A DNA stretch of 64,000 nt from an uncultured Kiloniellales bacterium (GTDB lineage: Bacteria; Actinomycetota; Acidimicrobiia; Spongiisociales; UBA5794): contig CAXMOP010000045.1 of assembly GCA_964195155.1 (NCBI GenBank), positions 23,636 to 87,635 on the forward strand, in the 5' to 3' direction. Shown here piece after piece: positions 11,176 through 42,540 of the stretch. Position numbers and translations under genes: made by a program. Every line of letters begins with the position of its first letter. The stretch's first letter is position 1. The notes beneath the pieces were generated by a model that had not been told where the DNA came from, made no database searches, and worked only from the letters and a program-made list of their open reading frames with translations.

Positions 11176-12078
11176 ATGACGATGGCCATCGAGGCGGTCG
11201 GCCTGACGAAATACTACGGAGACACCCCCGGGATCATCGACCTCAACCTCGAGGTCGAGACGGGGGAGATCTTCGGGTTCCTGGGCCCGAACGGGGCCGG
11301 CAAGAGCACCACCATCCGGACCCTGCTCGACCTGCTCCACCCATCATCCGGGACCGCGACCATCCTCGGATTCGACAGTCACACGGATTCGGTTGAGATC
11401 AGACGGCGCACCGGCTATTTGCCTGGGGACCTTTCGATGTACGACCACATGACCGCACGCGAGATGCTTCGCTACTTCTCGTCGCTGCGCGGCATCGAAA
11501 CATCGGCTCGTGTCGAAGAGTTGGCCCGGCGCCTCGAACTCGACCTCGACCGGAAGATCGGGTCCTACTCGAGCGGAAACCGTCAGAAGGTCGGGGTCGT
11601 GCAAGCGTTCATGCATGACCCGGAGCTGCTGATCCTCGACGAACCAAGCACCGGGCTGGATCCGCTCATGCAGCAGGAGTTCTATGCCATGATCGACGAG
11701 GTCAAGAACGCGGGCCGCACTGTATTCCTCTCCTCACACATCCTTCCCGAGGTGGAGCGCACCGCGGACCGGATCGGGATCGTCCGCAACAGCGAGCTCG
11801 TCACGGTGCAGACCATCGCCGACCTGAAGGAAAAGGCGCGTCGACACTTCCAGATTGTCTTCGGTGAGCCCGTGGCGCCCGACGAGTTTTCCGGGCTGCC
11901 CGGCGTTCAGTCGGTGGTCTCGTCCCACGACGGCTACGGCGTCGACATCGTCATCGAGGGCCCGGTCGACGGGATCCTCGGCGCCGCCGCCAAACACCAC
12001 ATGGAGAACGTGATCTCACACGAGGGGGATCTCGAGGACGCCTTCCTCGCGTTCTATGAGGACGACGATGCTGCCTAG
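11176..12078 (+). CDS. ABC transporter ATP-binding protein
   Basis: Walker A GPNGAGKST, signature YSSGNRQKV, Walker B LLILDEPSTGLD. Confidence 0.85.
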   Translation: MTMAIEAVGLTKYYGDTPGIIDLNLEVETGEIFGFLGPNGAGKSTTIRTLLDLLHPSSGTATILGFDSHTDSVEIRRRTGYLPGDLSMYDHMTAREMLRYFSSLRGIETSARVEELARRLELDLDRKIGSYSSGNRQKVGVVQAFMHDPELLILDEPSTGLDPLMQQEFYAMIDEVKNAGRTVFLSSHILPEVERTADRIGIVRNSELVTVQTIADLKEKARRHFQIVFGEPVAPDEFSGLPGVQSVVSSHDGYGVDIVIEGPVDGILGAAAKHHMENVISHEGDLEDAFLAFYEDDDAA

Positions 12079-12192
12079 GAGGGTGCTGAGCAATCCTCCA
12101 GCGGGCCCGTCGCGGTCGCGAGAAACCGAGCCACCGCAACCCTCGAGCAAGCGGCGGCCCATGGCACCGGTCATTGTTCAGCACCCTCCTGA
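12075..12192 (+). repeat. MITE/REP-like ~117-bp element, copy A (terminal inverted repeats, CTAG terminus supplying the ABC ATPase stop codon)
   Basis: ctaggagggtgctgagcaatcc...gtcattgttcagcaccctcctga. The 5' end is nearly the reverse complement of the 3' end. Four related copies lie at ~15386, ~28733, ~30382 and ~41655. Confidence 0.7.
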
Positions 12193-12256
12193 GGCGAAGC
12201 GGATTCGATCAGCTCGCGGTACACAGGTTCGCCACCTACGAGATGAAGGCTCGTAA

Positions 12257-15385: not shown

Positions 15386-15502
15386 CTAGGAGGGTGTTGA
15401 GCAATCCTCTAGCGTGCCGGCGCTGACTGGAGAATCCGAGTCACCGCAACACTCAAGCGAGCGGCGGCTCAGGGCACTCGTCATTGTTCAACACCGTCCT
15501 AG
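15386..15502 (+). repeat. MITE/REP-like element, copy B
   Basis: ctaggagggtgttgagcaatcctctagcgtgcc...tcattgttcaacaccgtcctag. Its 3' CTAG supplies the stop of the minus-strand oxidoreductase gene. Confidence 0.7.
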
Positions 15503-16047
15503 TCGTCGGCCGGCGAGTCCCAGTCGGTAACGTTCTTTCCCGCTTCGCGGGCGAGAATGTCGAGGGCTGCGGTGGCTCCGGCGCCGGCGGAGATGATCGC
15601 CTGACTTCGCTCGGGCCGTGCCGATCTGCCCACCGCATAGACGCGATCCATCGAGGACGCATATTCACGGTTCACCACGATGGCCCCTGAATCGTCGAGG
15701 GCGAGGCCGAGCGACCGTGCCAGCGCCGGGTTCTTGCCCTCGGAAAAGATGAGATAGTCGTAGGTGGCGCTGTCGGACTCGGTTGCCACGGTGAATCCGC
15801 CATCGGCAGAGACTGCCGTTACCTCGTCATCGACGATGCTGCCGCCGACGGCGGTGACCTGCCCGCGGGCGATCTCTTGGAAATCCGATCCGTCGATCTC
15901 GCGGATCCCGAGGTAGTTGTGGAGATATGCGAACTGCATCGCCGTCTTGTCGGTCCCGTACACGATCGCTTCGTGCCCGTTCTTTGCCAGGAAGAGTGCC
16001 GCCGACAGACCTCCTGGCCCGTCCCCGATGATCGCAATCGATGTCAT
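15499..16047 (-). CDS. FAD/NAD(P)-binding oxidoreductase (short thioredoxin-reductase-like)
   Basis: N-terminal dinucleotide-binding motif IAIIGDGPGGLSAA and a C-terminal GAGATAA-like segment. Confidence 0.55.
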   Translation of the reverse strand: MTSIAIIGDGPGGLSAALFLAKNGHEAIVYGTDKTAMQFAYLHNYLGIREIDGSDFQEIARGQVTAVGGSIVDDEVTAVSADGGFTVATESDSATYDYLIFSEGKNPALARSLGLALDDSGAIVVNREYASSMDRVYAVGRSARPERSQAIISAGAGATAALDILAREAGKNVTDWDSPADD

Positions 16048-17041: not shown

Positions 17042-18295
17042 TCAATCCGTGTGCACGTCCCTCGTCATGATGTCCGACAGCCCTTCGACAAAGTCTGACG
17101 TCGTGCCGAGCAGATCTGATCCCGGCCCAATCGCCCTGTTGCCGAACTTCTCCCGGAGCGCATCCACCGCCTCGTCGAGGGCTTGAAGCTCGAGCTCCTT
17201 GGGGTTGCCCGGCGATGCTTCCTCGTCGTCCACATCCAGCTCGAGCTGGAGCGCGGCACCTCGCTCCAGATTTGAGACGGAGATGCCGAGCAGGTTGAGG
17301 CCGCGATCGGGGTGATCGTCCAGGACCTTGTCGACCAGCCCCGACCCGGTTCGGTAGAGCACGGCGCTCGACGCAGTTGCGGCGCGGAGCGTCTTCGACC
17401 TGGTCACCGAGGCCATGTCGGTGAACCGTGCCCGGACGGTCATGGTTCGGCCACGCCGCCCCTTGTTCCGGAGCCGCGCCCCGACCCGCGATGAGAGCCG
17501 AGCAATCACGGCCTTGAGCTCGTCGGGGTCGCGGTGGTCTCCACCGAATGCACTCTGAGAGCCGACCGAGGAGGCGCGGCGGCTGGTCTCGACCATGCGG
17601 GCGTCGTTGTTCATCGACAGGGCCCGGAGCTGTGCGGCCTTCGCCCGGCCAACACGATCGGTGAGCATCCGCTCCGAGGTCGCCGAAATATCTCCGATCG
17701 TGGTGATCCCGAGGCTGGCCAACGCCTCCTGGGTAACCGGTCCAACCCCCCAGAGCCGTCCGACCGGCAGTGGATGGAGAAACGCGACCTCAGAGCCGGG
17801 CTCCACCACAATGAGCCCGTCGGGTTTCGCCACCTGGCTGGCGATCTTCGCCAGAAACTTCGTCGGTGCCGCACCCACCGAAACCGGAAGCTTGGTCTGC
17901 TCGCGTACCCGTCTGCGAATACTCTTCCCGATCTCTTCCGGCGTGCCGAACAGGTGCGTCGACCCCGAGACGTCGAGGAACGCCTCGTCGATCGACAACG
18001 GCTCGACGACCGGAGTGAACTCGCGGAATACCTCGAAGACGCGGTCCGAGTATTCGACGAACTCGCCGAATTCGCTGTCGAGGACGATGAGCGTTGGACA
18101 CAACTTGCGCGCCTGCCCGAGCGGCATCGCACTGCGAACACCCATCGCCCGTGCCTCGTAGGTACACGAGAGCACCACGCCACCACCGACGGCTACCGGC
18201 TTCCCGATCAGGTGCGGCGCCTTGAGCAAGGCAACGGACGCGTAGAACGCGTCGAGATCAGCATGCAGGATCGTCGGCCCGTCGGCGCGCCTCAT
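17042..18295 (-). CDS. dinB: DNA polymerase IV (Y-family)
   Basis: ILHADLDAFYASVA, catalytic SIDEAFLDV, HhH-like region. Confidence 0.85.
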   Translation of the reverse strand: MRRADGPTILHADLDAFYASVALLKAPHLIGKPVAVGGGVVLSCTYEARAMGVRSAMPLGQARKLCPTLIVLDSEFGEFVEYSDRVFEVFREFTPVVEPLSIDEAFLDVSGSTHLFGTPEEIGKSIRRRVREQTKLPVSVGAAPTKFLAKIASQVAKPDGLIVVEPGSEVAFLHPLPVGRLWGVGPVTQEALASLGITTIGDISATSERMLTDRVGRAKAAQLRALSMNNDARMVETSRRASSVGSQSAFGGDHRDPDELKAVIARLSSRVGARLRNKGRRGRTMTVRARFTDMASVTRSKTLRAATASSAVLYRTGSGLVDKVLDDHPDRGLNLLGISVSNLERGAALQLELDVDDEEASPGNPKELELQALDEAVDALREKFGNRAIGPGSDLLGTTSDFVEGLSDIMTRDVHTD

Positions 18296-18419
18296 GCGGA
18301 GATCATGTCACGCCCGTGTGACAGAACTTCCCTCTTTCGTCGATCGAATCATGGTCAAGTGCGAGCACAGCGTCGGTCGATGGACCAGAATCGACGCCGT
18401 GCCAGCCAGAATCGACACC

Positions 18420-20971: not shown

Positions 20972-21042
20972 GCGGGTGTAGTTCAATGGCAGAACATCAG
21001 CTTCCCAAGCTGAATACGGGGGTTCGATTCCCCTCACCCGCT
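20972..21042 (+). tRNA. tRNA-Gly (anticodon CCC)
   Basis: Cloverleaf: acceptor GCGGGTG/CACCCGC, D-arm GTTC..GAAC, anticodon stem TCAGC/GCTGA with loop TTCCCAA, T-arm GGGGG-TTCGATT-CCCCT. 71 nt. Confidence 0.8.
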
Positions 21043-26755: not shown

Positions 26756-27031
26756 GAATCCTCCCTGTCCTCTCCTGGCCTGTTCCTCACACTGTCGCTA
26801 CCGGGTATGACAGAAACGCGTCAGACCACAGCGGGAAGTAAGGGAAGCGGAGTCAGTGTACGCGGCTCGCTCGAAGCGTTCCTCTCGGACCGCTTGATGT
26901 TTTTCGCGACGGGCCGCCGTCAACAGTCAACAGTCAACAGTCAACAGCGGGAAGGTATCGGAGAGTCGTCGCGCGTTCTGGCTGAAGACTGAAGACTGAA
27001 AGCTGAGGACTCCTTGCTGACTGACGACTTC

Positions 27032-28732: not shown

Positions 28733-28846
28733 AGCTGGGACGGTGTTGAGCAATCCTCCAACGTGCCGGCGCTCACTGGGGAAACCGAGTCACCGCAACA
28801 CTCAAGCAAGCGGCGGCTCAGGGCACTCGGAATATTCAAGAGCTCA
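28733..28846 (+). repeat. MITE/REP-like element, copy C (in the rpsF operon upstream region)
   Basis: ctgggacggtgttgagcaatcctccaacgtgccggcgct... It is nearly identical to copy B over ~95 bp, with a degenerate 3' end. Confidence 0.65.
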
Positions 28847-28894
28847 GCCACGCGCCAGCCCGAGGCGGGGGTTACCCAAACGAGCGCACCTCGG

Positions 28895-30381: not shown

Positions 30382-30485
30382 ACGAGGGCTCTGAGCGATC
30401 CACTCGCGGTGGGTCGCCGCTCGATCCATGGCCACAGTGCCATGGCGGCGGGCCGCAGCATTTGTCATTGTTCAGAACTGTCCTA
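30382..30485 (+). repeat. MITE/REP-like element, copy D (diverged)
   Basis: gagggctctgagcgatcc...tttgtcattgttcagaactgtcctag. Both termini are shared with the other copies. Confidence 0.5.
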
Positions 30486-38187: not shown

Positions 38188-41100
38188 GTGACCGTGATTT
38201 GCCCTTCGTGTAGTGCAACAGCCGATGCCGGGGCCAGATTTTGCGCGACCTGTGGCACGTCGCTTGTGGCGACCTGCCCCATGTGTGGGGCCGAGACGGC
38301 ACCAGGAGCAGCGTTCTGTGCTTCCTGTGGGACCTCGCTGACCCCGCAGGAGGCCGTAACGGAGACCAGGGCGGTGGAGGAGCGCAAGGTGGTGTCGGTC
38401 CTGTTCGCCGACCTCGCCGGGTTCACCGAGCGCACCGAACGCTCCGACCCCGAGGACGTTCGAGCCCGCCTCACCATCTATCACAAGACGGCCCGCGAAC
38501 AGGTCGAGGCTCATGGCGGCCGAGTCGAGAAGCTGATGGGCGACGGAGTCTTCGCCATCTTCGGGGTCCCCGCCGCCCACGAGGACGACCCGGAACGGGC
38601 GGTGCGCGCTGCGCTGCGGCTTCAGGAGGCAATCGCAGTCCTCAACGAAGACGACCCGGATCTCGCATTGTCGGTACGGGTGGCGGTCACGACCGGCGAG
38701 GCGATCGTCCAACTCGATGCCGATGACCAGGACCGCGAGACGATCATCGGTGACGTGGTCAACACCGCATCGCGCCTCGAGGCGATCGCTCCCCCGGGCG
38801 GGATCGTCGTCGACGAGCGCACCTACCTGGCGTCACGCGCCGACATCTCCTTCGAAGACCTCGACACGGTCGACCTGAAGGGCAAGGCCGACGCCACCGC
38901 TATCTGGCTCGCCACCGGAGCCCGGGCACGCCACGGCGTTGCTGTGGAAGAGCGGCACAAGGGCCCGTTCGTCGGTCGGAGCACCGAACTCGCCGTGCTG
39001 GTCGACTCGCTCGACCGGACCATCGCCGCCCAAACCGTTCAGCTGGTGACGATTATGGGTGAGCCGGGAGCGGGAAAGAGCCGGCTGCTCCACGAGTTCA
39101 AGGCCGTCCTCGACACGAGGACCGACACGATGTGGTGGAAGCAGGGCCGCTGTCTCCCCTATGGGGAAGGCATCACCTTCTGGGCGCTCGGCGAGATCGT
39201 CAAGGCGCAGGCCGGGATCCTCGAGACCAACAGCGAGACCGACGCCGATCGCAAGCTTCGCCACGCCGTGGTCACGCTGATCGACGACCCGGCCCAGGCG
39301 GAGTGGGTTGTGTCGCGCCTCGCCCTGCTCGCCGGTGGGACCGGTGAAGACCAGCAGATCGAACAGGGGGAGTTGTTCTCGGCATGGTCGCGGTTCTTCG
39401 AAGCGATGGCGCACCGCCACCCGCTGGTGATGGTCGTGGAAGACATCCACTGGGCAGACCAAGCCCTGCTCGACTTCATCGAGTACGTCGCCGAGTGGGC
39501 CGTCGACGTGCCGATCCTGCTGGTCGCCGCGGCCCGACCGGAACTGCTCTCGAGCCGTCCGAGCTGGGGCGGTGGCATCCGCAATTCGGCCACCATCAGC
39601 TTGGCACCACTCGCCAACGACGATGCGGCCGTTCTGCTGGCAGCACTGCTCGATCGCGCCGTGCTCCCGGCCGAGACCCAACAGCTCATCCTGGAGCGGG
39701 CCGGCGGAAACCCGCTCTACGTGACCGAGCTGGTTCGCCTCGCCGCAGACGCCGATCTGTTGGATGAGGCCGGCAAGATTGAGGAGCTCGCCCTACCCGA
39801 CTCGGTCCAGGCCATCATCGCCGCCCGGCTCGACCTTCTCGACACCGAGGAGAAGGAGTTGCTCCAGGCGGCCGCGGTGATGGGCAAGGTGTTCTGGTCC
39901 GGGGCCCTCGCGGCGCTCAGGCCGTCCGCGCACTCGGCGCCGACGGTTCGCGAGCTGGTTCGCCGGGAGATGATCCGGCCGATCCGCGACGCTTCGATGC
40001 AAGGGCAAGAGGAGTATTCCTTCGTCCACGCCCTCGTTCGCGATGTGGCGTACGGCCAGATCGCCCGCGACGACCGGGCCGAGATGCATCAGGCAGCAGC
40101 GACATGGATCGAGGCGGTGAGCGGCGAGCGGGGTGTCGACGTGGCCGAGTTGCTCGCTTACCACCTCGGCGAAGCGCTATCGCTGACCACCGACCCCGAT
40201 GCCGAACTTCGGGCGCGGGCCTACCGGGTGCTGATGCAGGCCGGTGAGCGAGCCCGCGGGCTCAACCCGACCCAGGGGGCCTCCTACTACCTCAAGGCCG
40301 TCGACGCGGCCGACGTCAACACCGATCGGGCCGAGGCGCTGTTGTGGGCAGGACAGCTCAGCCAGGACGATCTGGAGAAGTCCAAACGGTGGCTCGAGGA
40401 GTCCCTCGCCCTCTACCAGGAGGCCGGCGATCCCGAGGGGCAGGCCGATGCCCTCACACAGATGTCAGGCTGGAGCTGGTGGCGAGGCGAGACCGAACGC
40501 GCCGACGAGCAGATCCACAAGGCAATCACACTGCTCGAAGACCGGCCCGACTCCGAGGCCAAGGCGGAGGCCCTGGTGGCCAACGTCGGCAAGCTGTTTC
40601 TCCGCGGACGTGATGCGGAGGCCGTCGCGGCCGCGGACCTGGCTGCTCCCGTCGTCGATGCCGCTGGGACCGCGGAAGACCAGATCAAACTGCTGTCGCT
40701 CAGGGGTGCCGCCCTGGCCAACTCCGGGCTCAACGAGGAGGGACTTGAAGACATGGCAACGGCGATGGGGATCGCAGACGACCGCAACTTCTCGTTCCAA
40801 TCGGTGACGATTCGCAACAACCTCGCAACGCTGACCCACCAGCTTCGATCGCCACAGGATGCCGTGGCGATCATCAATGAAGGCATCGAGCTTTCAAACG
40901 AGCGAGGCCTCCCGGCGTCTACCGACTGGTTGCGCTTCACCAAGTCCGAGATACTCATCTGGACCGGAGACTGGGACGAGTCGGTCGCTCTCGCCCGGGA
41001 GGTCATCGAGGCCGACGACGAGCGCGGCGGGAGCCAGGCCGGGATGGGCGCCCGATCGCACATCGGGATCATCGAGCACTACCAGGGGGTCGAACACCCC

Positions 41101-41658
41101 TCGGTGCGGTGGGTGGAACTCATCGAGCACGCCCGGGAGGTCCAGGATCAACAAGTGCTCTCACCGGTGCTGGCGATCGCGGTGATGATGGCGTACGACG
41201 CCGGTAACCAGACCGACGCGGTGCGCCTTGCCGACGAATACCACGCGGCTGCGATCGACCTGTATCGGACCTGGTTCCTCCCGTGGGTGACCGGACCGCT
41301 CGCCCGTATTGGCGACGTCGATCGAATCGAGGCCCTCCTCGAAGGGTCACCTGTCAACGGAAGCCACGCAAAGGTGGGTCGGGACCGTGCCGAAGGCCAT
41401 CTAGCCGAGGCCCGAGGCGATCATGGAGCGGCAGCAGATCGGTTCTTCGACGCGGTCGCCACCGCCGGGCAATTCGGCCGACCGCTCGACGCCGCCCTCG
41501 CCCGGATCGACGCGGCGAGGGTGCTCACGAACGACGATCGGTTTGACGACACCGTGGCCGCGGCTCGTGAGGAGGCGGAGCGGATGGGTGCAGACCGGCT
41601 CCTGGCGCAGCTCGACGAGATCGAAGGCCACGGGCGGTCTCAGGCTGCGGGGGCCTAG
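38188..41658 (+). CDS. Multidomain regulatory protein: double zinc-ribbon + class III adenylate/guanylate cyclase + STAND/AAA ATPase + TPR
   Basis: Two C4 ribbons (CPSCSATADAGARFCATCG, CPMCGAETAPGAAFCASCG). CHD region VVSVLFADLAGFTERTE...KLMGDGVFAIFGVP. P-loop GEPGAGKSRLL. A long helical TPR-like C-terminus. No LuxR HTH is evident. Confidence 0.8.
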   Translation: MTVICPSCSATADAGARFCATCGTSLVATCPMCGAETAPGAAFCASCGTSLTPQEAVTETRAVEERKVVSVLFADLAGFTERTERSDPEDVRARLTIYHKTAREQVEAHGGRVEKLMGDGVFAIFGVPAAHEDDPERAVRAALRLQEAIAVLNEDDPDLALSVRVAVTTGEAIVQLDADDQDRETIIGDVVNTASRLEAIAPPGGIVVDERTYLASRADISFEDLDTVDLKGKADATAIWLATGARARHGVAVEERHKGPFVGRSTELAVLVDSLDRTIAAQTVQLVTIMGEPGAGKSRLLHEFKAVLDTRTDTMWWKQGRCLPYGEGITFWALGEIVKAQAGILETNSETDADRKLRHAVVTLIDDPAQAEWVVSRLALLAGGTGEDQQIEQGELFSAWSRFFEAMAHRHPLVMVVEDIHWADQALLDFIEYVAEWAVDVPILLVAAARPELLSSRPSWGGGIRNSATISLAPLANDDAAVLLAALLDRAVLPAETQQLILERAGGNPLYVTELVRLAADADLLDEAGKIEELALPDSVQAIIAARLDLLDTEEKELLQAAAVMGKVFWSGALAALRPSAHSAPTVRELVRREMIRPIRDASMQGQEEYSFVHALVRDVAYGQIARDDRAEMHQAAATWIEAVSGERGVDVAELLAYHLGEALSLTTDPDAELRARAYRVLMQAGERARGLNPTQGASYYLKAVDAADVNTDRAEALLWAGQLSQDDLEKSKRWLEESLALYQEAGDPEGQADALTQMSGWSWWRGETERADEQIHKAITLLEDRPDSEAKAEALVANVGKLFLRGRDAEAVAAADLAAPVVDAAGTAEDQIKLLSLRGAALANSGLNEEGLEDMATAMGIADDRNFSFQSVTIRNNLATLTHQLRSPQDAVAIINEGIELSNERGLPASTDWLRFTKSEILIWTGDWDESVALAREVIEADDERGGSQAGMGARSHIGIIEHYQGVEHPSVRWVELIEHAREVQDQQVLSPVLAIAVMMAYDAGNQTDAVRLADEYHAAAIDLYRTWFLPWVTGPLARIGDVDRIEALLEGSPVNGSHAKVGRDRAEGHLAEARGDHGAAADRFFDAVATAGQFGRPLDAALARIDAARVLTNDDRFDDTVAAAREEAERMGADRLLAQLDEIEGHGRSQAAGA

Positions 41659-41770
41659 GAGGGTGCTGAGCAACCTCAAGCGGGGCCTCGCGGTCGGGAG
41701 AAACCGAGTCACTGCAACAGTCGAGCTAGCGATGGCCCGTGGCACTCGTCATTGTTCAGCACCGTCCTAA
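41655..41770 (+). repeat. MITE/REP-like element, copy E
   Basis: ctaggagggtgctgagcaacc...gtcattgttcagcaccgtcctaa. Its 5' CTAG supplies the stop of the 1156-aa gene, and its 3' end supplies the stop of the minus-strand RidA gene. Confidence 0.7.
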
Positions 41771-42153
41771 TCCTCGATAGCGGCCTGTACCTCGATCTCG
41801 ACCTTCCACCCCGGGTCAAGCAGCGCGGCGACGACCACCATCGTGGCTGCCGGGGCGGCGTCGCCGAAGAGCTCGCGATGGGCCCTCCCGATGTCGTCGG
41901 CATCTGCGGGGTCGGTGATATACATCCGGGTCCGCACGACCTCGGCGGCCGTGGCGCCGAGCTCCTCAAGCGCGGCGATGGCGATCGCGCCGCAGCGGAG
42001 CATCTGCTCGTAGGCCCCATCCGCGACCGGCTCACCATCGGGCGGGATCGGAGCCGTGCCTGCTATCTCGATGCGGTTACCGGCAGCGACTCCCCTCGAA
42101 AACCCATAGGCCGCTTCGTAGGGAGATCCAGACGTGGCATGGCGTTTTGGCAT
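41767..42153 (-). CDS. RidA/YjgF family protein
   Basis: RIEIAGTAPIP...RTRMYITD...VEIEVQAAI. Start set at the internal Met. Confidence 0.7.
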   Translation of the reverse strand: MPKRHATSGSPYEAAYGFSRGVAAGNRIEIAGTAPIPPDGEPVADGAYEQMLRCGAIAIAALEELGATAAEVVRTRMYITDPADADDIGRAHRELFGDAAPAATMVVVAALLDPGWKVEIEVQAAIED

Positions 42154-42540
42154 GATCAGGATGCTACGGCGCGTTTCTGTCACACCCGCTCGATACGGTA
42201 TCCGCATGACGAAGCAGAACACACCAAATACGCGTTCAGACCAGGCGATCGAGGCGTTCTTCGCTCACATGGGCCTTGCCGTTGAAGTTGTCGACCGGTG
42301 CCCGATTGCCTCGTGCGAGCACTGCCGGATAGAGCTCCACGAAGCTGCATGAGTTTGCGCCGGACCCGAGGGATTGCACAGCTAAACCGGGTTTGCGGGC
42401 ACTACCTTGGCCGCCATGGCGCTAATGCTCCACGAGACCGACAGCGGCTTCGTCTGGTGGGACGAAGCATTGATCTTTGCGGTCCCCATCGTGATCGCGG
42501 TCGCCACGGTGTTGTGGCTCGCCAGGCGATCGCGCGTCGA

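Follow-up and report, generated by a model that had tools for sequence, protein, structure and literature searches.

For the insertion sequence IS630, the target is the TA within 5'-CTAG-3', and this dinucleotide is duplicated, by the account of Tenzen and Ohtsubo (1991) as relayed in a later paper (PMC2170065), and IS5-group elements also use CTAG targets, of which they duplicate 4 bp (PMC9241763). Among MITEs, the pneumococcal RUP is an IS630-type element of 107 bp that is thought to be mobilised in trans by IS630-Spn1 (PMC2229807). Other small elements with inverted ends, Correia/NEMIS in Neisseria and QMITE1/2 in Coxiella, adjoin gene 3' ends or extend across them and form hairpins when transcribed along with the genes (PMC2229807; PMC5896051), and the overlap of MITEs with gene 3' ends at unchanged protein size is already known from Coxiella (PMC5896051).

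The repeat analysed here, present as copies A to E in the window (the whole stretch of 64,000 nucleotides that was analysed; Table 1), resembles each of these systems in part. It has the target behaviour of IS630, with a 2-bp TA duplication and a preference for CTAG, but IS630 is ∼1.1 kb long and encodes its own transposase. Like RUP it is ∼110 bp long, non-coding and multi-copy, with terminal inverted repeats and with insertion at, and duplication of, TA; RUP belongs to another phylum, shares no sequence similarity with it and has a parent known through matching inverted ends, and the strong CTAG preference and stop-codon occupancy seen here are undescribed for RUP. Whereas the overlaps made by Correia/NEMIS and QMITE replace C-terminal residues, the target of the present element is the stop codon and no residue is changed. 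MIRU, the mycobacterial interspersed repetitive units, are actinobacterial repeats too, lying between genes and reaching with their ends into the adjacent stop and start codons; they differ in being tandem direct repeats with small ORFs in operons and in having neither inverted ends nor a TA duplication. On the reading that we hold to be very probable, a non-coding Acidimicrobiia MITE inserts at the TA of CTAG, which is often part of an existing stop codon, and rebuilds the stop on both sides of itself while leaving the proteins unchanged.

Table 1. Positions in the window of the five MITE copies, the target duplications of copy E and the genes whose stop codons adjoin copies A, B and E.
Feature	Position	Strand	Remarks
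ABC transporter ATPase gene (ABC_tran, Pfam)	11176-12078	+	300 aa; stop TAG = TA + first G of copy A, within the left CTAG of copy A (12075-12078)
MITE copy A	12078-12189	+	112 nt; flanks TA (12076-7) left, TG (12190-1) right
MITE copy B	15389-15499	+	111 nt; TA 15387-8 and TA 15500-1, CTAG on both sides
Oxidoreductase gene (Pyr_redox_2, Pfam)	15499-16047	-	182 aa; stop TAG = complement of 15499-15501, within the right CTAG of copy B (15499-15502)
MITE copy C	28738-28849	+	left flank decayed to TG; right end degenerate
MITE copy D	30383-30483	+	divergent, ∼101 nt; flanks CA left, TA right (30484-5)
Zinc-ribbon / adenylate-guanylate cyclase / AAA_16 / TPR gene	38188-41658	+	1156 aa; C-terminus ...SQAAGA before the stop
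Left TA duplication of copy E	41656-41657	.	with the first G of the element = cyclase TAG (41656-41658)
MITE copy E	41658-41767	+	110 nt; ends GGAGGGTGCTGAGCAA and TTGTTCAGCACCGTCC
RidA (Ribonuc_L-PSP) gene	41767-42153	-	128 aa from ATG at 42153; convergent with the cyclase gene
Right TA duplication of copy E	41768-41769	.	with the last C of the element = RidA TAG (complement of 41767-41769)

That the repeat is a dispersed insertion element, as a preliminary description had proposed, is borne out by five full-length copies that align from end to end in the window and by empty sites in relatives. The stretch from 41655 to 41770 reads gggggcC-TA-GGAGGGTGCTGAGCAA...TTGTTCAGCACCGTCC-TA-Atcc, and the repeat first delimited there is real, but the element proper lies within it and the flanking TAs of copy E are target duplications. 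The element ends are imperfect terminal inverted repeats of ∼20 bp (GGAsGGTGyTGArCAAT), and the window contains a 16-nt end motif 10 times where 2.0 occurrences are expected, a count reached in 0 of 100 shuffles, so that chance does not account for the repeat. Copies are 100-112 nt long, within the size of a MITE (<300 bp), and have no conserved coding frame; those in the window fold through their inverted ends into long hairpins on either strand (z-scores -3.6 to -5.3). Divergence is 4-6% in the inverted ends and 14.7% in the interior, and subfamilies with unrelated interiors have common ends; such conservation of the ends over the interior is expected if mobilisation requires the ends alone. 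An Rfam scan of the window at gathering score found no family for the element, the sole match being a tRNA at 20972-21042. With its inverted ends, its TA duplication of fixed length and its presence or absence at orthologous sites, the repeat is a MITE. Copy C sits between the rpsF upstream region and a DUF192 gene and overlaps no stop, and the ATG (30496) of a PNPOx-like gene is 10 nt downstream of copy D.

The target had been guessed to be TA or CTAG, and the guess was correct: TA is duplicated and C-TA-G is preferred. Paired copies have TA on both flanks in 78 of 107 cases among the matches listed from genome blocks and in 31 of 49 from metagenomes, and the remaining pairs mostly have one base of one TA changed, typically to TG or CA. 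When the target is rebuilt, C precedes the TA in 77-93% of cases and G follows it in 76-88%. The G and C inside the TAs are invariant, and in ∼30% of copies the left and right outer bases disagree, even among near-identical ones (CTA with TAA, TTA with TAG and CTA with TAC are examples of left and right flanks). Because the inner bases are fixed and the outer bases vary, the duplication is one of 2 bp (TA) and not of 4 bp; models of a 4-bp CTAG duplication and of a 3-bp duplication were both ruled out by these flank statistics.

The same features bear on the notion of a REP/BIME-type palindrome spread by a RAYT (tyrosine-type) transposase, or of a structured small-RNA gene, in place of a DDE-type MITE. 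Either would suit a repeat that is dispersed, intergenic and hairpin-forming. REPs, however, are 20-40 nt long and are not known to make a target duplication, and the element is a unit of ∼110 nt, bounded by 20-bp inverted ends, that targets CTAG and consistently duplicates the 2-bp TA. Both ideas are further opposed by the lack of an Rfam match, by the presence of both orientations and by the absence of covariation. We regard both as scarcely credible for this repeat. The REP/RAYT system is described in PMC2817692.

The MITE reading can be put in terms of a mechanism, for which a trans-acting DDE transposase would presumably be responsible. Such an enzyme would make a 2-nt staggered cut at TA in the target DNA, with a preference for 5'-CTAG-3' sites. 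Since the first base of the element is G, its last base is C and a TA stands on either side, the product has the form C-TA-[G...C]-TA-G, and each junction again reads CTAG. Where the target TA came from the TAG or TAA of a gene, that gene keeps its stop at the same codon, now as TAG, and a convergent gene sharing that TA on the other strand likewise keeps its own. In this genome of ∼65% GC, CTAG is rare and about one-third of the CTAGs outside coding interiors are stop codons; insertions at stop codons would be harmless, and so would be expected to persist.

Site E, between the cyclase gene and the convergent RidA gene, provides the fullest comparison with relatives. Pfam domains Guanylate_cyc, AAA_16 and TPR were found in the 1156-aa protein and Ribonuc_L-PSP in RidA. 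Cyclase orthologues (74-86% identity) all end in ...AAGA or ...AARA, as does the protein in the window. In the closest relative (L121, 86%), which is without the element, the site reads GGGGCC-TA-ACC, that is, the window sequence minus the element and one TA; the site is also empty in L007 (84%; GGGGCT-TA-ACC) and L123 (74%; GCGCC-TA-GTC), and in all three relatives the cyclase and RidA stops overlap by 4 nt on one TA. The length of RidA is unchanged without the element, the protein ending in ...VEIEVQAAIED in the window against ...VEIEVEAAVGG. The site-E TA is also filled in L008 (81%), L014 and L100, with identical orientation in all, and the insert in L008 belongs to a subfamily whose interior differs; in L122 and L011 this position is taken up by short spacers of unrelated sequence. 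With L121 empty, no fewer than two of the site-E insertions must have been independent, and one TA has thus been hit recurrently. A single old insertion common to the filled lineages was considered and ruled out, since three relatives, the closest among them, lack an insert and that of L008 is from another subfamily.

Sites A and B agree with site E in the proteins that they leave behind. Site A is empty in L115 (94%) and L116 (86%), where the orthologous ATPases are 300 aa long and end in ...DDAA, and site B is empty in L116, where the oxidoreductase is again 182 aa long (ending in VTDWDSPSED against VTDWDSPADD in the window). Empty sites, whose comparison the preliminary description recommended, have thus been found for A, B and E. 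Site A is the less regular of the two. The right duplicate of copy A is TG, which with the next base forms TGA (12190-12192), the stop codon used by the relatives; the element plus TG amounts to 114 nt, or 38 codons, so the downstream TGA is still in frame. It is possible that the element landed in a TAA and that the right copy mutated later, and it is also possible that it landed in TG and that a G-to-A change on the left restored the stop. The ATPase protein is the same under either history, and at this site the simple TA-target model requires extra mutations, or the insertion was non-canonical.

The preliminary description had located the stops correctly, placing those of the cyclase and RidA genes in the left and right ends of copy E, that of the ATPase gene in copy A and that of the oxidoreductase gene in copy B. 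From this it had concluded that the CTAG termini of the element donate stops to the flanking genes and that insertion has reshaped the C-terminal ends of at least four proteins. The present stops do consist of TA and one element base, and the TAG in use at site A is new, with the TGA of the relatives now 114 nt downstream. All four proteins, however, have the same length with or without the element and end at the same residue as their element-free orthologues, an outcome that the earlier account had itself named as evidence against the idea; the stops pre-exist in relatives lacking the element, the TA is part of the target, and only the third base (G) is element-derived. The same is seen when the pre-insertion codon is rebuilt (flank, TA and flank) for every junction stop with an intact opposite TA: the codon was already TAG or TAA in 34 of 37 cases. 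It was TAC in the other 3, so a few insertions may have truncated genes, and at six ends in the MAG APA_bin_98 a gene reads on into the element for 11 nt and stops at a TGA that occupies element nt 10-12. For the four window genes the orthologues refute a remodelling of C-termini by donated stops, and as an account of the element this view is very improbable.

There is reason to think that more than target preference brings copies of this MITE to stop codons. Three of the five insertion sites in the window are on stop-codon TAs, and the window has 10 CTAGs inside coding sequence, 9 at stops and 18 between genes. Of the 43 unique sites from metagenomes, 25 (58%) are on a stop-codon TA, three of them on two convergent stops, against 10.3 (∼24%) expected (binomial P ∼2e-6). 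The expectation was derived from the fraction of TAs outside coding sequence that belong to stops, taken separately for each C/G context, and under the gene calls used, which came from a crude GC3-based caller, the excess is real. The stop-codon share in APA_bin_98 is only ∼14%, and many copies there are away from gene ends. Occupancy of stops above this estimate of their availability implies a contribution beyond target preference, and the rarity of CTAG together with selection for harmless sites is probably the explanation of the excess, a compact genome offering no less damaging position than a stop codon.

Two further explanations of the excess were considered. One is that the host has put the element to use as an RNA hairpin at 3' ends, acting as a terminator, an insulator of convergent genes or a stabiliser of mRNA. 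The whole element does give a stable hairpin on either strand, the share of sites exactly at gene ends is more than twice that expected, and the convergent cyclase/RidA pair has been hit repeatedly, in the same orientation, in three lineages. Yet neither a T-run nor a terminator-like site was found in 41400-42000, no Rfam family corresponds to the element, and in an RNAalifold analysis of 12 copies the covariation term was positive, which is no support for a conserved structure beyond the pairing of the inverted ends, with few compensatory changes, mainly in those ends. Divergence in the interior is also some three times that of the ends, many copies (chiefly in APA_bin_98) are away from gene ends, and close relatives have empty sites with genes that are functional without the element. 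A promoter scan around copy E detected none. Recruitment of this kind appears improbable to us. The second explanation is that stop codons are an adapted safe landing site, in that G...C termini and TA duplication regenerate TAG on both strands, so that the high occupancy and the repeated hits between cyclase and RidA reflect real homing to stop codons, or service to the host as a spacer or an insulator where genes converge, and not just the survival of insertions that do no harm. We think this unlikely as well, if less so than a recruited hairpin; were it true, stop codons, and especially the 4-nt overlaps of convergent genes, would be colonised without cost. On the reading that we prefer, the stop-sitting habit of the family is neat but explainable.

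It had also been suggested that the element could create translation starts, through an AGGA(C/G)GG-N8-ATG motif in the reverse complement of its 3' end. The motif is present, as AGGAsGG-N10-ATG, and the end with GAACAATGAC reads AGGAGG-N10-ATG. The frame from this internal ATG is open across the element in 41 of 52 copies and ends exactly at the far-junction TAG in 25 copies, giving 32 codons; at this GC content, chance alone would leave a frame of 31 codons open in almost half of all sequences. A small protein made from this start was rejected, since divergence is equal at codon positions 1, 2 and 3 (0.150, 0.148 and 0.147) and an internal stop interrupts the frame in 11 of the 52 copies. 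The RBS-like GGAGG is directed into the element, and therefore does no service to neighbouring genes, and the suggested creation of starts is not supported. One might speculate that the internal ATG is a relic of the start codon of a parent transposase.

The source of the window is an uncultured Acidimicrobiia bacterium, and named homologues of its proteins bear that label. A scan with a right-end 20-mer, using one genome per species, found the right-end pattern in at least 103 genome blocks, and a metagenome scan with the same pattern found 64 loci. Among the matches listed, most blocks (>80 of the fetched 8-kb blocks) are from APA_bin_98, ∼10 are from the Acidimicrobiia BMS9Abin07 and a few are from bins labelled Acidobacteria or Kiloniellales. 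The two contigs labelled Acidobacteria (L014 and L100) are syntenic with the window, the contig labelled Kiloniellales (L084) has a near-consensus copy, and six metagenome contigs from other samples have the identical RidA plus the element. In the literature searched, no paper connects MITEs with Acidimicrobiia, and this is apparently an undescribed, abundant MITE family of marine and sponge-associated Acidimicrobiia.

A parent was sought in the same material. The ∼1.3 Mb of fetched loci yielded neither an autonomous element with these ends nor a transposase gene present in several copies. Pairs of ends 0.2-4 kb apart in the 103 genome blocks listed, or 0.4-3 kb apart in the 64 metagenome loci, proved in every case to be adjacent MITEs or members of other subfamilies, and all-against-all blastn and blastp for multi-copy sequences and proteins returned SDRs, response regulators and syntenic orthologues, with no transposase among them. 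Multi-copy IS elements are frequently missing from MAG assemblies. A solo end in the complete Acidimicrobiia chromosome OZ246890 was rejected as a parent because it is a decayed MITE; blastn against a plasmid collection gave matches of 25-37 nt that are attributable to chance, one in Streptomyces lying inside an ordinary gene; and a scan of viral contigs gave four matches to one phage gene, where the 18-mer serves as RBS and ATG, again by chance. As no autonomous copy was found, we can only infer mobilisation in trans and the family assignment.

The parent may be IS5-like or IS630-like, the ends being IS5-like but the behaviour at TA in CTAG being of the IS630 type. The ends of IS5A in MG1655 are GGAAGGTGCGAACAAG, also given as GGAAGGTGCGAA(C/T)AAG, and in a single comparison GGAAGGTGCGAACAAG of IS5 and GGAGGGTGCTGAACAAT of the element match at 14 of 16 positions with one gap. 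The subfamily in L008 has the end GGAAGGTGCTGAAGAAT, and by the comparison with IS5A the element ends are of the GGAAGGTG... type that marks the IS5 group. That group differs in its 4-bp CTAG/YTAR duplication, whereas the element duplicates TA only. The IS427 group, which belongs to the IS5 family, is listed with 2-4-bp repeats.

For annotation, these results mean that the stops beside the element are genuine ancestral stops and that the proteins are intact, so that such genes need no flag as truncated or fused. At site E, overlapping convergent stops that shared one TA have been split by 112 bp with neither protein altered. The family offers a clean case in which target preference (TA in CTAG), genome composition, where CTAG is rare and C-preceded TAG stops are common, and probably selection jointly concentrate a selfish element on stop codons.

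At site A, where copy A of the MITE (a non-coding repeat of ~110 nt) lies at the ABC ATPase stop, the right-hand 'duplicate' is TG rather than TA and belongs to a TGA that serves as the ATPase stop in the element-free relatives L115 and L116. The element and this TG together measure 114 nt, or 38 codons, so that the former stop TGA has kept its reading frame and now follows downstream of the new TAG. A non-canonical TG insertion combined with a rescuing mutation may account for the site, as may two successive mutations. The ATPase–permease spacer of L115 (a 94% relative) holds a different insert, which is bounded by a 17-bp perfect inverted repeat (GAGGCGAAGCGGATCGG...CCGATCCGCTTCGCCTC) and could be another short palindromic element; the window retains the left arm alone.

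Among the matches listed, many MITE copies in the metagenome-assembled genome APA_bin_98 adjoin a recurrent flank, tagtgtcccgagtcggaagttcgtcacaga or its reverse complement (examples in the table), and a repeat of ~330–450 nt is common to loci L020, L077, L079, L082, L089 and L101. In this genome the MITE has gone repeatedly into a different repeat family, at its ...GGGACAC-TA end. Elsewhere elements abut one another with a single common TA (...CCCTCC-TA-GGAGGG...), as one would predict if the restored CTAG of each junction can in turn serve as a target.

Coordinates of features in the window and in fetched loci
Feature	Locus	Positions	Strand
TG 'duplicate' and TGA, site A	window	12190-12192	
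ATPase stop TGA	L115	5898-5900	
ATPase stop TGA	L116	5901-5903	
Spacer with insert	L115	5901-6056	
Retained left arm	window	12192-12205	
tagtgtcccgagtcggaagttcgtcacaga flank	L020	4624-4653	
tagtgtcccgagtcggaagttcgtcacaga flank	L034	1130-1159	
tagtgtcccgagtcggaagttcgtcacaga flank	L050	5444-5473	
tagtgtcccgagtcggaagttcgtcacaga flank	L029	65-94	
tagtgtcccgagtcggaagttcgtcacaga flank	L030	110-139	
Abutting elements	L135	986-1000	
Abutting elements	L143	4975-4990	
Abutting elements	L174	5494-5508	
Abutting elements	L149	3722-3736	
Cyclase start region	window	38188-38280	
Short Pyr_redox_2 gene	window	15499-16047	
Short Pyr_redox_2 gene	L116	9144-9692	
Motif upstream of start codon	window	18292-18326	+
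Motif upstream of start codon	window	26791-26820	+
Motif upstream of start codon	window	42170-42209	-
Third MITE subfamily	L103	1989-2091	

In the metagenome annotation the cyclase is called from an internal ATG, as a protein of 1125 aa (P0001). Orthologue lengths of 1153–1155 aa, and a double zinc ribbon (Pfam DZR, residues 5–48) encoded only with the GTG start at 38188, make the longer reading from that GTG the likely one. The window's Pyr_redox_2 protein is only 182 aa long. Its match to the Pfam model covers the FAD-binding start and the final third but skips the NAD(P)H part between them, and L116 has a protein of this same short form.

Three window sites have in common a ~35-nt motif, GTCATGCGGA..N..GGTGTGACAGAAACGCG, located 20–30 nt upstream of start codons that include the RidA ATG (42153). 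Its 11-mer core occurs 3 times in the window versus 1.1 expected, a count reached in 7 of 100 shuffles, and the motif could be a promoter or operator. The 18-mer GGAGGGTGCTGAACAATG was found in one phage gene family on IMG/VR contigs L124–L127, where it apparently serves as ribosome-binding site and start codon; these matches look like chance occurrences with no relation to the MITE.

Two Acidobacteria-labelled loci, L014 (JADFIY01) and L100 (JACZST01), are syntenic with the window at 75–80% nucleotide identity, and Kiloniellales-labelled L084 (CAXMPL01) carries a near-consensus copy. All three contigs have probably been binned or labelled wrongly; horizontal transfer of the MITE is the less likely reading. 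In a third subfamily, an unrelated interior lies between related ends (GGAGGGTCCTGAAAAAC...GTTTCTCAGCGCCCTCC) with TA flanks, and one transposase specificity appears to be common to several MITE lineages.
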